Position numbers and translations under genes: made by a program
The notes under the pieces: generated by a model
What the model was told of the DNA's origin: nothing
Seen by the model: the letters and a program-made list of their open reading frames with translations, nothing else
Database searches by the model: none
Assembly: GCA_964016885.1 (NCBI GenBank)
Contig: CAXHJY010000074.1
Location: 1 to 35,397 of the forward strand
Direction: 5' to 3'
Length of the DNA stretch: 35,397 bases
From: Eledone cirrhosa
Taxonomy: Eukaryota
In this document: positions 5,566 to 24,641 of the stretch, piece after piece
How positions within the stretch are numbered: position 1 is the stretch's first letter
How the letters are laid out: every line of letters begins with the position of its first letter

Positions 5566-6018
5566 ACATATATATATATATTGATATATATATATATATA
5601 TTGATATATATATATATATATTGACATATATATATATATATATTGACATATATATATATATAAATTGATATATATATATATATATATTGACATATATATA
5701 TATATAAATTGATATATATATATATATATATTGACATATATATATATATATATTGACATATATATATATATAAATTGATATATATATATATATATATTGA
5801 CATATATATATATATAAATTGATATATATATATATATAAATTGATATATATATATATATAAATTGATATATATATATATATATATTGATATATATATATA
5901 TATATATATTGACATATATATATATATATATATATTGACATATATATATATATATATATGTTGACATATATATATATATATATATTGACATATATATATA
6001 TATATATATATATTGACA
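1..6018. repeat. Interrupted (TA)n microsatellite/minisatellite array with TAGACA, TTGACA, TTGACACA, CATTGACA and AAATTGATA interruptions
   Basis: Read directly: short (TA)n runs separated by recurrent GAC-containing motifs. It explains the spurious IY-repeat ORFs. Confidence 0.98.
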
Positions 6019-6579
6019 TATTTGGGAGCAAAGATTGGGAATACGGAAGATGATGTGGTTGAGAGGAAGAGCAAGGCCTGGGCAGCGTGCCACAGCTTGA
6101 GATCGGTGTGGAAGTCGGACCTTCGTAGAGACCTGAAAATCCGCCTCTTCATTGCTGTAGTGGAGTCTGTGCTGCTGTATGGGTCTGAGACTTGGACACT
6201 GACCAAGAGACTCACTCAGATGGTGGATGGGTGCTACACGAGAATGCTGAGGATGGCTCTGAACATTAATCAGTATACACTGAGGATGAAAAACTCAGAG
6301 CTGTATGGGAGCCTCCCAAAAGTCAGCTCAAAAGTGACACAGAGGAGACTGAGGTTGGCTGGACATGCTCACCGACATCCAGAGTTGACATTGCACTCCG
6401 TGCTCCTTTGGGAGCCCCTACATGGACACACTGGAAGAGGAAGACCAAGGTTAACATATGTTGATGCCCTAAGGACAGACACTGGTCTGTTGGAGACGCA
6501 GGACATGGCAGCGATAATGAGGGACAGAGACCGCTGGAGAGAACTCGTCCATGGATCTCGGGAATTTTACCCGCCTTAG
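6013..6579 (+). mobile_element. 5'-truncated non-LTR retrotransposon (RTE-like LINE), C-terminal region downstream of the RT core
   Basis: Open 188-aa frame with [33 protein letters not shown] and GRGRPRLTY motifs typical of RTE-clade C-termini. The stop TAG runs directly into ATAGATATATA. Confidence 0.9.
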
Positions 6580-13053: not shown

Positions 13054-13450
<397 letters not shown>

Positions 13451-13875
13451 GAGAGACGTAAAATAAGAAAATTATAAAATTAACTTACTTAATAAAATAT
13501 CACTTCCAACTAATTAGTTTCTGAAATGGAATAAATATATTTTCCGAAGAAAACATATAGAATCATTTCGTCATCAGGGAAGACTATTCTCATCTAAGTA
13601 TCCAGGCAAAGCGGGGACTCTGGAAACTTGTTCAAAAATAATTCAGTGGATAGAAAATAGCAAAGCGTGGACTGAATTCCTAGCCATTGAGAAAATCACT
13701 GCCTCTGCGTCGGTGGCAAATTCAAAAAGAATCAATCACGTGACATCGAGGTCAATCAGTGGAAAGTGGTTTGCTAATAAGACAGCGGCCTGCTTGCTAC
13801 CATAGCAGCAGTCGTGGCCAATATTGCTCGACAAATAATTTGGAGATAATTATAAAGAATTAATATCTAGTAACA
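13451..13875 (-). mobile_element. Putative Penelope-like pLTR / non-autonomous retrozyme-like element inserted in (TA)n
   Basis: Non-coding unique island bounded by TA repeats. It carries a hammerhead near its 3' end followed by an AT-rich tail. Confidence 0.6.
13503..13582 (-). ncRNA. Type I hammerhead ribozyme motif (Penelope-type, palindromic stem III)
   Basis: The minus strand reads CUUCC-CUGAUGA-c[GAAAUG..AUAUGUUUUC(UUCG)GAAAAUAUAU..CAUUUC]a-GAAAC-UAAUUA-GUU^GGAAG. Stem I is CUUCC/GGAAG. Confidence 0.8.
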
Positions 13876-13931
13876 TATATATACATACAGATGCATATCA
13901 ATGCTAGCAAATATATAGGTTTTGTCTTAGT

Positions 13932-14008
13932 AACTTTGTGGTTCAATGCATGGGGTTGCAGAACAATCATATTATTGTTCTGCAACCCATGCATTGAACC
14001 ACAAAGTT
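13932..14008. other. Near-perfect 77-nt hairpin (35-bp stem, one bulged G, 6-nt loop)
   Basis: AACTTTGTGGTTCAATGCATGGGGTTGCAGAACAAT-catatt-ATTGTTCTGCAACCCATGCATTGAACCACAAAGTT. Confidence 0.9.
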
Positions 14009-14009
14009 T

Positions 14010-14250
14010 TATGTATATTTATTTATATATATATTTATATTTATATTTATATATATTTATATTTATATATATATATATTTATATATATATATATTTATAT
14101 TTATATATATATATATTTATATTTATATATATATATATTTATTTTTATATATATATATATATATTTATTTTTATATATATTTATATATATATATATTTAT
14201 ATATATATATATTTATATATATATATATTTATATATATATATATTTATAT
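14010..14250. repeat. (TA)n/TTTA-interrupted microsatellite
   Basis: Read directly. Confidence 0.95.
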
Positions 14251-14307
14251 ATAAAATATTAAACAAATAATGAATAAACAATTCCTTATATTAAACAAAA
14301 AAAGTTC

Positions 14308-14456
14308 ATTATTTAACGATCGTTTCTAGGGTATATATGTGTTATAATTGGTATGCATATTCAACAGATCTATGTACAAAATTATACAAAATTATACAAA
14401 TTATCAAGATTAAATATACATACCTAACACATATATACGCCGTCTTCAGAAATAAT
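14308..14456 (-). ncRNA. Type I hammerhead ribozyme motif (mirror copy in the left palindrome arm)
   Basis: Reverse complement of 14471-14619. Confidence 0.75.
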
Positions 14457-14470
14457 CTTCAGAAATAATC

Positions 14471-14619
14471 ATTATTTCTGAAGACGGCGTATATATGTGT
14501 TAGGTATGTATATTTAATCTTGATAATTTGTATAATTTTGTATAATTTTGTACATAGATCTGTTGAATATGCATACCAATTATAACACATATATACCCTA
14601 GAAACGATCGTTAAATAAT
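14471..14619 (+). ncRNA. Type I hammerhead ribozyme motif with a 116-nt stem II
   Basis: AUUAUUU-CUGAAGA-c[long stem II: GUAUAUAUGUGUUA/UAACACAUAUAUAC; GGUAUGUAUAUUUAA/UUGAAUAUGCAUACC]a-GAAAC-GAUC-GUU^AAAUAAU. Stem I is 7 bp. Confidence 0.8.
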
Positions 14620-14812
14620 GAACTTTTTTTGTTTAATATAAGGAATTGTTTATTCATTATTTGTTTAATATTTTATCTTGACTCTGTATACCGTTTATCT
14701 TTCACCGAAAGTGGATCTTCATTACATCTCTTCTTTCCATGATATCCGGAATACATTGAGTTCTTCATACGGATTGGACACTACCGTAAACTCTTGGTAG
14801 ATTTATCTACAT
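14471..14812 (+). mobile_element. Penelope-like pLTR-type element with an inverted partial copy at its 5' side
   Basis: The hammerhead-bearing unit continues to GTAGATTTATCTAC and then into (TA)n. Inverted partial pLTR copies are characteristic of Penelope-like insertions. Confidence 0.6.
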
Positions 14813-14833
14813 ATATTTATATATATATATATT

Positions 14834-14866
<33 letters not shown>

Positions 14867-15790
14867 TTATATATTTATATATATATATATTTATATTTAT
14901 ATATATATTTATATATATATATATTTATATATTTATATTTATATATATATTTATATATATATTTATTTATATATATATTTATATATATATATTTATATAT
15001 ATATATATTTATATATATATATTTATATATATATATATTTATATATATATTTATACATACATATACATATTTATATATACATATACATATTTATATATAT
15101 ATATATATATTTATACATACATATACATATTTATATATACATATACATATTTATACATACATATACATATTTATATATACATATACATATTTATATATAC
15201 ATATACATATTTATATATACATATTATATTATACATACATATATATTTATACATACATATCATCATCACCGTTTTACGTCCGTTCTTCCACGCTAGCATG
15301 GGTTAGACGGGTTGTCCTGTTGTGGGCAGTGTCTGGTCGGCTGACCATGCCTTGCTCATACAGGAACTGATCTTTATACATATATATATATTTATACATA
15401 TATATATATATTTATACATACATATATATTTATACATACATATATATTTATACATACATATATATATATTTATACATACATATATACATATTTATATTTA
15501 TACATATATATATTTATACATATATATATATATTTATACATACATATATATATATTTATACATACATATATATATATTTATACATATATATATATTTATA
15601 CATACATATATATATAGATTTTTACATACATATATATATATATTTATACATACATATATATATATACATATATATATATTTATACATATATATATTTATA
15701 CATATATATATTTATACATATATTTATACATATATATATATTTATACATATATATATATATTTATACATACATATATATTTATACTTACA
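14813..15790. repeat. (TA)n/(TACA)n/TTTATACA microsatellite tracts
   Basis: Read directly; interrupted by the RTE end at 15259-15371. Confidence 0.9.
15259..15371 (-). mobile_element. 3' terminus of an RTE LINE (same family as 17294-17887)
   Basis: Reverse-complement match to ~17764-17876, including the (GAT)n tail. Confidence 0.85.
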
Positions 15791-21880: not shown

Positions 21881-21906
21881 TTATTATTCCTTATATATTA
21901 TTATTA

Positions 21907-21950
21907 TTCCGCCGAGGTTAACTTTGCCTTTCATCCTTACGGGGTCGATA
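21907..21950 (+). mobile_element. SINE central-domain fragment at the Gypsy junction
   Basis: TTCCGCCGAGGTTAACTTTGCCTTTCATCCTTACGGGGTCGATA. Confidence 0.7.
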
Positions 21951-23965
21951 CCCTCAGCGCCTCCGAGCGGAACGCTGCGCTGTTGTCCATCAGCAGTTCG
22001 TCCACAGGGCCCCGCTCCAAGAACACCTCTCAACGTCCGCATGATTTCCTCGGCCGTTCCAGTCTTCATCTCCCTCCATATCGCCATCCGTCCCGGTCCA
22101 CAGTCGACCATCGAGAGGTACGTTCCCTGTCGGTAGTGTGTTACATCCACCGCCAATCGCTTCCAGTCGCGATCCACCGGGAGGCTTCCCGTTTCGTGCA
22201 CACCCGGGGCAGGATCAATGGACTGACATCGGACGCAGCCTCTAACCACTCTTTGAACACTGTGTCTGTTAACGTCCGAGTCGATTCCCCTGGCTAGGAA
22301 CAGAGTTCTATCCACCCCCATGTGGTGCATGTCATGCAACCCTTTCAGATCCGACTCGGTCAGCCGACACACGGCAGCTATCTCCTCTGCTACCTCCTCC
22401 GGCGCTTCCATCCAGGCCTTCTTCACCCTGGTTAAAACGTCCGCCCTATTTTTCTCTGAGGGCACGAAAACTATGCTCAGCCTCAGGTCGAACTCGGTGG
22501 CCAGCTCTCCTAAAGTTCCCAGGCGGCGCTTTATCAGCATCTCCCCCCCCCCTCTCGTTCGCACTCTCTTCTCACTGGTGAGCACTGATCTCGTTCGCAC
22601 GCTCTTCTCACTGATCTCACCCATCCGAGTACAGTAGCTGAGTCGGTGCGTATCTCGATGGTGCACAGTCCCCACCTCAGGGCGAGGTTCACCCCTCTCA
22701 ACACCGCGTCCAGTCCGGCCACATTGATGTGGTTGCAGTCGTCCTTCTTCCTAAGCCAGGCTGCATCCTCGACCTCAACACCTCCTATCTCCAACGTGAC
22801 ACCCAGCGCTATGCTGCTGGCATCGCACCATACGGTCCCGCTCTGCGATTTGGGAACATGCACTGGGTCGTCGGCCTTAACCCTCTCCACGATCTCCTGC
22901 ATCATGGCCACCGTCCTCTCTCCCACTCTGTCACTCCAAGTCACCCTTCCCGCTCGTCTCTTGACATAGCTGCATGCCGTCCGGAGCCTCCCAGCAATCG
23001 GGTAGTGACCCACCAACTTTCCACACACCGAGAAAAGCTCCCGCCTACTCATACTTGGGCCCAGTTCTGGAACTTCATTTCCCCTCTGGAATACTAACAC
23101 GTCCGTCCTGTCTCGCCGTAGCCTAAGTCCCAGCGCGGCTCCTCCCTCCAACGCTTCTGACGGCTTCGCAGCCAGTCCATACCCCTGTAAATGGCTCGTG
23201 ACCTCCGCCGCCGACACTACAGACTCGTCCACTAGGATGTCGTCAATGTAGGAATTAGTGGCCTTCTTCATCTTGTCGTCCTTTCCCAGAATGGTCTTGA
23301 GGACCGCCGCCATGATCTTCGGTGCAGAGCTCAGCCCGAAACCGAGCCTGGTCAGGCAATATGTCCGGCCCTTATACCTGACCAGCTGATACTGCCAGAG
23401 CTTCTCATCTATATGTAATTGCAGGTATGCCGACTTTAGATCTACGATTGCGGAACCCCCCGTCATGCGTTTCCACTAACGCAGGGTTTCCCCACAGACA
23501 TCCGTGACCTCGCCACCCGTGTGGCATGACACGTGCTCGTTCAGCTCCCGAAAGTCCAGTACCGGCCTCACCTTGTTCTTCGTGGGTTGCGCCACCGCCA
23601 TTAACGGCAATACTCCGCACTTCACCCCCTCTTTCCAGGGAAGCAGTATGCTCTCCTCAATCCATCTCTCTACCTCTAACTCGAACTCTCTCCTAATGTC
23701 TCCCTTCAATGTGTGTTGATAGCAGCCCACTTTGGTCTTCAGTGTTGGTGGTTCTCCCTTCCAGTACCACTCAACAACCCATCGCTGCCCATCGAACACA
23801 GTCTTGAAGTATTTGTCCTGCACAGTGTAAGCGGGGTATTTCTCCTCGAGAGCCTTCAGGTTCTCCTGTCGCGTACTCACAGCGCATACCGATGCGGCGC
23901 CGCCAAACGACACACCGACGTTGTTCACTGTGACGCCTCTGAGACGGCCAATTGCGTCCAAGAGA
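21951..23965 (-). mobile_element. pol: Ty3/Gypsy LTR-retrotransposon pol fragment (RT, RNase H, integrase N-terminal part), pseudogenised
   Basis: RPVLDFRELN, VDLKSAYLQ, LGFGLSSAP, YIDDILV; RNase H WCDAS and RTDSATV; integrase zinc finger H..HH...C..C and WKRLAVDVTHY. In-frame stop at 23476-23478 and a frameshift near 22545-22620. No LTRs seen. Confidence 0.92.
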
Positions 23966-24641
23966 GTAAGTAGGGTTGTTGATGTTAAGAAGATTGTGAG
24001 CACTATAAATTTTATTCTTACCTTATTCCCTCGCTTTTAAGTGTTGCATCTCTGCCATAATTTCCATCTCCGTATCCGACACATTCAGCCACCAAAAATT
24101 ACATGACAGTTTTTTTTTCTAATGTCTGAACGCATGGTTAGTTCTTAAGAGTTTCTACTCTGATACCTTTAAAACTACTGAATCTAGAAAGTCCATTTTT
24201 TTAAAAATCAATGATTATTAATTAAATTATTGTTGTTGTATCTAATTATTTTCCTTTTTACGAATTTTGATTTTGTTTGTTTTGTTTTTTAAAATAAAAT
24301 ATTTAAATATTAAGTACACAACCAAACTTTATTCAACATGCCATGATATACGAGCTTTATGAAAATCAATAAAGAAATGCATGTGATAAATTTTCACATA
24401 CATAGGATACGTAGCAATACAATTTGTTTCTGATATTGGTGACTAATACTTCGCTAATGTAAAATACATGCAGATAACGATCACATCTTTTCAGAAAATT
24501 ATCATTTGTTTTCATTCGTTAAAAATGAATATTTTAAAGCTATTATGAAAGGAATTATTTAGTTGCTGTTTGGTCTCAGGTCAGCTCTGTTGGGGCAGGT
24601 CTATTTTGATCTGAGGCATCAACTGCGACCTGTATTATTAT

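Follow-up and report, generated by a model that had tools for sequence, protein, structure and literature searches.

This study revealed that a TA microsatellite within the window, the whole stretch of 35,397 nucleotides that was analysed, probably holds two insertions. One is a solo, inverted-duplicated pseudo-LTR (pLTR) of an intact Hydra-clade Penelope-like element (PLE), and the other is a single 522-bp monomer of a non-coding repeat, which likely owes its mobility to a PLE of this kind; slow self-cleavage is predicted for the type-I hammerhead of each, probably in dimeric form or with the aid of the element's protein. This is neither a new ribozyme class nor a new kind of mobile element: the GUU triplet, the palindromic stem III, the targeting of microsatellites and the mismatched base of stem II are already known. 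What appears to be new, and can be defended from the sequences, is a Hydra sub-lineage in which, as in its non-coding passengers, domain II measures 50-116 nt and mostly has C.A or A.A as its closing pair; the copy number is very high. The features of the locus are as follows.

13056-13450, no strand: TA microsatellite, flank and presumed target
13451-13972, minus strand: family A monomer, 522 bp, ORF-less and retrozyme-like, its 3' end adjoining the TA array at 13450
13503-13582, minus strand: hammerhead A, type I, with a C.A base, GUU and a palindromic stem III; cleavage predicted after 13508
13973-14008, plus strand: short inverted piece of family A, located at the insertion's 5' end and making a hairpin at 13932-14008 (self-match)
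14010-14253, no strand: TA microsatellite between families A and B
14251-14456, minus strand: family B pLTR, inverted 5'-truncated copy, with the shorter 3' end, 64 nt past the predicted cut
14308-14456, minus strand: hammerhead B-, inverted copy, U17 at 14315; predicted cut after 14315
14457-14470, no strand: inversion junction, holding a 13-bp duplication
14469-14621, plus strand: hammerhead B+, type I, with a C.A base, GUU and a palindromic stem III; cleavage predicted after 14612
14471-14811, plus strand: solo family B pLTR (assigned to a Hydra-clade PLE), with the longer 3' end, 199 nt past the predicted cut, and a 135-nt tail at 14677-14811
14811-15784, no strand: TA-rich microsatellite, flank and presumed target

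Both strands of the whole window were scanned with a relaxed hammerhead descriptor, and exactly three type-I cores were found, one in family A and two in family B; a fourth row of the output is an alternative start within the B junction, so that three cores were counted. All of them display CUGANGA, GAAA and UH in this order, with the ends closed by stem I, and share GUU, a palindromic stem III, a C that follows the first core and an A that precedes GAAAC. The Watson-Crick pair at 10.1-11.1, next to the core, is absent from all three, and C.A is found there instead. U.U is a published natural exception to this pair, for instance at the foot of helix II in the Amex2 motif of the axolotl (Cervera and de la Pena 2020, PMC7229834). 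Hammerhead A has a stem I of 5 bp, its core at 13577-13571, a domain II of 49 nt (13570-13522) with the C first and the A last, a palindromic stem III at 13518-13509 and U17 at 13508. In hammerhead B+, stem I comprises 9 bp and domain II 116 nt (14485-14600), and U17 is located at 14612. The pair directly inside C.A is G-C in hammerhead A and G.U in hammerhead B. The sequence allows two readings of C.A: a 10.1-11.1 pair that is non-canonical or, in A, an intact G-C preceded by the usual additional nucleotide after A9 and followed by one more A. The earlier note had described two families of such motifs, with a stem II of 49 or 116 nt, as islands between TA microsatellites, and both the description and the setting were found to be accurate.

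The window consists of AT-rich, animal-like DNA, plausibly from an octopus, with the islands separated and flanked by TA arrays. Hammerheads B- and B+ lie in the arms of a 206-nt inverted repeat of 100% identity (14251-14456 and 14471-14676) and thus represent a single insertion event rather than independent examples. Elsewhere in the window, positions 5989-6579 (plus strand), between TA arrays, hold a fragment similar to the C-terminal portion of a non-LTR ORF of RTE-like type, and a GC-richer island at 21884-24036 (minus strand) holds, by inspection, a fragmented LTR-retrotransposon-like pol with RT, RNase H and integrase-like pieces.

With regard to family B, a DNA search of the 3.0-Gb assembly that contains the window, on which all genome-wide pattern and DNA counts are based, returned 1,512 first-look candidates, and the 40 that were scored are 98-100% identical. 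A 20-nt family B motif downstream of the ribozyme gave 1,767 matches genome-wide and none in the reversed-pattern control. At loci L061 and L062, an open frame of 813 aa lies between two pLTR copies 6.6 kb apart; the order is pLTR, ORF, microsatellite-rich spacer and pLTR, and the hammerhead is found about 490 nt upstream of the ATG. Approximately 3.6 kb of AT- and microsatellite-rich sequence after the ORF (L061:4000-7600) forms part of the unit and is common to distant copies.

The encoded protein exhibits YRDD (RT) and, at its C-terminus, IVYKC..YIG of the GIY-YIG type, as well as RVRWR at position 35, DKT at 115, a CxCx5C linker at 673, CxxC at 771 and CxH at 799, and a motif check found it to lack GxKF/Y. 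The diagnostics given for the Hydra clade are the RWK motif, DKT, the CxCX5C linker, CxxC and CxH around E/N, and the absence of GxKF/Y (PMC8557442). By inspection, the protein resembles Hydra-1_Obim, an octopus member of that clade in Craig et al. 2021 (PMC8557442); Neptune had been our first guess, which was dropped for Hydra on the protein motifs. Given that a Pfam scan of the ORF returned no family, the RT and GIY-YIG assignment is based on motifs and homologs. Judged by these features, family B is the pLTR of an intact 6.6-kb Hydra-clade PLE with an RT/GIY-YIG ORF. Insertion into (TA)n, a hammerhead within the pLTR, a palindromic stem III of 3-5 bp and a mismatched stem II base are also shared with that clade (PMC8557442). 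In contrast, the size of 6.6 kb, the microsatellite-rich 3' region and the 135-nt tail set element B apart from published Hydra elements, which are generally shorter than 3 kb (PMC8557442).

The survey of family B copies comprised 30 position-ordered loci, in which the two arms of one insertion are counted twice. C.A and GUU were found in all 22 readable cores, the remaining eight being truncated or unread. The 3' end lies 64 nt past the predicted cut in 12 of the 30 and 199 nt past it in 16, with two ending elsewhere, and TA adjoins it in 26; in the window, a solo pLTR that ends at +199 is fused to an inverted arm with its end at +64. The two positions correspond to the pair of internal sites at which the RT starts in the anole Poseidon element (PMC11167929). 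None of the 30 begins at the cut site, the nearest start being 21 nt off. Partial tandems (pLTR), inverted 5'-truncated copies, an optional tail and a (TA)n target make up the PLE insertion pattern, which was observed here.

The 5' ends and inversion junctions of family B gather at the ribozyme: six of the 30 copies start 6-7 nt before the core, and 12 start within -7 to +37 of the 6.6-kb unit. AATAAA occurs about 15 nt upstream of this cluster point, and junctions with short reiterations were seen, namely the 13-bp duplication in the window (14457-14471) and an 8-nt unit present three times in L059:1490-1515. The cluster may reflect an RNA 5' end, set by a start site or by poly(A) cleavage, or the stalling of the RT.

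The 522-bp unit of family A gave 2,063 first-look candidates, and the 40 that were scored are 96-98% identical. Copies occur in tandem or as inverted truncated copies and with 50-nt tails. The longest sense stop-to-stop frame is 48 aa, so that the unit has no ORF; arranged in tandem, with every monomer bearing a type-I hammerhead, it resembles the non-LTR retrozymes of animals (PMC7229834; 10.64898/2026.07.22.740005). Unlike those retrozymes, it has longer monomers (505-571 nt), PLE-like inverted truncated copies, 50-nt tails, C.A and a long domain II. A superfamily pattern that left both positions at the stem II base free matched 10,846 times genome-wide and not once when reversed; with the family B counts, this indicates that the motifs are not due to chance. 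Among the first 100 superfamily matches listed, 99 carry C.A and one U.A, over at least seven stem II sequences, and C.A with GUU was found in all 30 fetched family A loci. N7 is a C in most close copies and a T in the window copy. Among the contigs of two sequencing runs, one covers all 29 bins of the monomer with no alternative letter listed at C.A or U17, although it possibly comes from the source sample itself and is not counted as evidence.

The stems of family A covary. In an alignment of 23 motifs (the window copy and 22 of the 30 loci, near-duplicates being left out), 97.8% of cells are paired, versus 31-51% in slid registers. One stem II pair is UA in eight, GC in six, CG in five and AU in four, and another is UA in 12 and GC in 11; these counts include related sequences and do not amount to a probability. 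Stem I covaries or shifts in a compensatory manner across the superfamily. In the 30 loci, the 3' end lies directly on (TA)n in 15, after a tail in one and in the next monomer in ten, and is unresolved in four, against a (TA)n background of 4% (284/7,000). A conserved E-box-like CACGTG and a short direct repeat were also observed in the monomer (window 13640-13760) and might represent an internal promoter.

No autonomous partner of family A was found among the fetched loci; ORF fragments near family A at L015 and L182 were considered for this role and are separate insertions past TA arrays. Similarity between families A and B is limited to the microsatellite. The link between family A and Hydra is therefore drawn from the insertion pattern and the type of stem III, which suggest that family A is likely a non-coding passenger mobilised by a Hydra-type PLE. 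We did not retain the idea that its long stem II arose from a duplicated 3' half-core, since the inner GGAAA is located in a hairpin. The earlier proposal that the carriers belong to a PLE and retrozyme-like system targeting (TA)n is supported by the ORF of element B, the tandems of family A and the 3' ends that adjoin TA.

Several of the features that had been regarded as departures from the textbook hammerhead are ordinary in PLEs. GUU is one of them: U17 is present in 24 of the 56 PLE motifs aligned in Fig. S3 of Cervera and de la Pena 2014 (PMC4209133; figure text as extracted) and in 10 of the 25 Hydra families in File S2 of Craig et al. 2021 (PMC8557442), nearly all of which target (TA)n and 14 of which have U.U at the base of stem II. 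PMC3138052 merely names GUU as a cleavable triplet, and a passage on GUU was not found in the accessible text of PMC1636495. The hammerheads studied here resemble the minimal PLE hammerheads in being of type I, with an extra nucleotide after A9, a palindromic stem III and frequent U17, but the minimal consensus keeps G10.1-C11.1 beside GAAA, whereas families A and B have a domain II of 49 and 116 nt and a longer stem III (PMC4209133). Likewise, the Hydra hammerheads in the accessible part of PMC8557442 have a short domain II, and none has C.A.

C.A is in print once: in PLE-X1_cBra of Chara braunii (Craig et al. 2021, File S2), a C follows the first core and an A precedes GAA, flanking a G-C-closed stem II, which is the arrangement of family A. 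The carrier is, however, one EN-minus element of a plant, whose loop is short, whose cut site is CUC-type and whose target is (CA)n, and its C.A is not treated as a variant in the accessible text of that paper (PMC8557442). The min-HHR descriptor permits an extra N10 and an extra N11 (PMC4209133), and the long-domain sub-lineage was not found in the accessible literature. A literature search returned no published C.A family or long domain II in cephalopod or Hydra elements; figures, bioRxiv supplements and Lunse et al. 2017, which lay outside its scope, may list them. The claim that standard descriptors would miss these motifs holds for min-HHR, which limits loop 2 to 10 nt and stem II to 7 bp (PMC4209133). 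An Rfam scan of 13451-14812 gave 27 matches at E<=10, all of them microRNA-like hairpin noise and none a hammerhead; five loci with short Hydra-type motifs likewise gave no match at the gathering score, so the Rfam miss is not specific to C.A or to length and is uninformative.

The mechanism that we propose starts from direct observations: the structure of the element, two fixed 3' ends in both families, (TA)n flanks, conserved cores and covarying stems. The GIY-YIG nuclease would nick TA repeats, and the RT would then start internally, downstream of the hammerhead, at either of two sites, by analogy with the anole Poseidon element. The RNA template would be mostly uncleaved, since copies keep the whole ribozyme and no family B copy in the survey begins at the cut site. 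C.A would represent a local version of the loose stem II base pair of Hydra-clade hammerheads, which is U.U elsewhere, and the long domain II would be an insertion held by selection in one sub-lineage, likely as a folding or protein-binding module. For the hammerhead fold, the predicted distance above the MFE is 2.5 kcal/mol in A and 1.2 kcal/mol in B; intermolecular duplexes of the palindromic stem III are predicted at -9 and -10 kcal/mol. As stem III can close in the monomer near the MFE, dependence on a dimer is not forced, and monomer and dimer folding are both possible. PLE minimal hammerheads show low activity in vitro (PMC4209133), and low, dimer- or protein-assisted cleavage is the published norm for PLE hammerheads (PMC4209133, PMC11167929).

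Alternatively, the motif could have lost catalysis and be retained as a signal that acts through structure or protein binding, in loading the RT or in defining the 5' end. The usual hammerhead has a metal-binding G at 10.1, which a pyrimidine at this position would lose. The lack of family B copies beginning at the cut site also agrees with this explanation, as does the anole element, for which in vitro insertion was unaffected by ribozyme mutations and none of the reads stopped at the cut site (PMC11167929). Nevertheless, many diverged families retain C3-A9, G12-A14, a pair at 15.1-16.1 and a residue other than G at 17. The search patterns themselves set the core letters and nothing else, but their controls were near zero and the pairing of stem I is in register with the cut site. 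Moreover, a natural U.U at 10.1-11.1 has been reported as compatible with cleavage, while other mispairs were rejected in the same work (Perreault 2011, PMC3088659). A non-catalytic motif is considered unlikely.

The suggestion that C.A, GUU and the long stem II define a distinct hammerhead class, in which they co-evolved to attenuate or gate cleavage, is very unlikely. At least three families that look unrelated (A, B and the L263/L264 element) combine all three, and in a short family with AGCT, residue 17 is U in the C.A subfamily and A in the U.U subfamily. However, a sister family of B combines C.A and a long domain II with GUA, C.A was also found with a stem II of 4 bp and in families with GUA and GUC, and U17 is common in the published PLE motifs cited above. 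For C.A with GUA or GUC, the pattern gave 4,842 matches versus 4,221 in an inflated control, so that only listed families were used. At a gap of 70-100 nt, A11.1 with GUU (2,521 versus 756 in the control) is outnumbered by A11.1 with GUA or GUC (11,044 versus 995); other residues at 11.1 gave 16,682 versus 3,945, and the total excess over control at this gap is about 24,500. Sixty loci from two of these searches (A11.1 with GUA or GUC, and other 11.1) yielded 56 parsed central matches, 25 of which have a stem I of at least 4 bp and a palindromic stem III; these include families with C.A, A.A, U.U, A.G and A.C, and with GUU, GUA or GUC. Given that the three traits vary independently in the genome, the class defined by all of them does not hold, and the co-evolution idea is largely refuted.

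Short-gap motifs provide further material. A generic core pattern with a gap of 11-40 matched 177,341 times versus 14,543 in the control (with some double counting), and U.U predominates among the first 100 matches listed. The short AGCT family matched 27,265 times; the first 100 listed comprise 96 U.U, three C.A and one C-G, with no C.U or U.A intermediate among them. Its U.U/GUA and C.A/GUU subfamilies (e.g. L067 versus L127) share stems I-III and are a natural matched pair for kinetics.

That C.A is a decayed C-G or G-C pair in dead copies, for example through CpG deamination, is extremely improbable and is refuted by the counts: although in family A both letters of C.A adjoin potential CpG context, and the AGCT matches include the one C-G copy, C.A prevails in superfamily A over its stem II variants, intact autonomous elements carry it, and in family B and the AGCT subfamily the A follows a T, so that it did not arise from a CpG. 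Both C.A and GUU are traits of the families, as the earlier note had supposed, and the canonical family consensus that it had named as contrary evidence was not seen in families A and B.

Returning to the reading of a Hydra-clade PLE and its passenger, the long domain II appears to be a trait of one lineage. A second autonomous element has C.A, GUU and a domain II of 90 nt, with 52.5% aa identity over residues 3-472. Autonomous Hydra-type elements with a long domain II comprise those with C.A, GUU and 90 nt (L263, L264, L342) and those with A.A, GUC and 91 nt (L337, L339). Among 78 metagenome loci encoding relatives, a hammerhead was found on the coding strand in 64, and none in the reversed control. 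The 59 distinct motifs all have a domain II of 25 nt or less and never a long one; their base pair is U.U in 23, G-C in 22, G.U in five, A-U in five and other in four, with C.A in none, and GUU is present in six. Viral contigs gave 14 pattern matches, none of which was confirmed.

In a quick tree of 88 RT stretches from this genome and from metagenome relatives (SH-aLRT support, without bootstrap), the long-domain elements share one branch (eight rows, SH-aLRT 85); all rows from this genome lie on one side (91), so that host lineage is confounded with ribozyme type, and the ribozyme label of row L015 comes from a neighbouring insertion. An internal loop of GA-D-U facing AGC was also observed in the distal domain II of eight of 14 long-domain representatives, versus 0.76 expected from shuffles (e.g. 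L296, L310, L309, L316); the loop was defined by eye on those same families and B itself fails its strict form, so that it serves as a lead only.

A more far-reaching proposal, which we hold tentatively and consider somewhat improbable, is that one Hydra-clade sub-lineage turned domain II into a structured module of 50-120 nt, closed by C.A or A.A and often bearing the GA-D-U/AGC loop, which would make cleavage conditional on the element's own protein and mark the RNA 5' end to which the RT copies; tens of thousands of such motifs in this genome would have been missed by current descriptors.

At short gaps alone, about 160,000 hammerhead-like cores were found above control, which is comparable to the 126,247 of the axolotl (PMC7229834). 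The short loop limits in descriptors imply that eukaryotic hammerheads are undercounted. For work on the role of hammerheads in PLEs, this genome offers a natural mutagenesis set on shared backbones: U.U, C.A, A.A, A.G and G-C at the base of stem II, GUA, GUC and GUU as triplets, and a domain II of 10-116 nt, together with young, intact autonomous elements. If the proposal of a structured module is true, the intact element B would be a ready system for testing what PLE hammerheads do.
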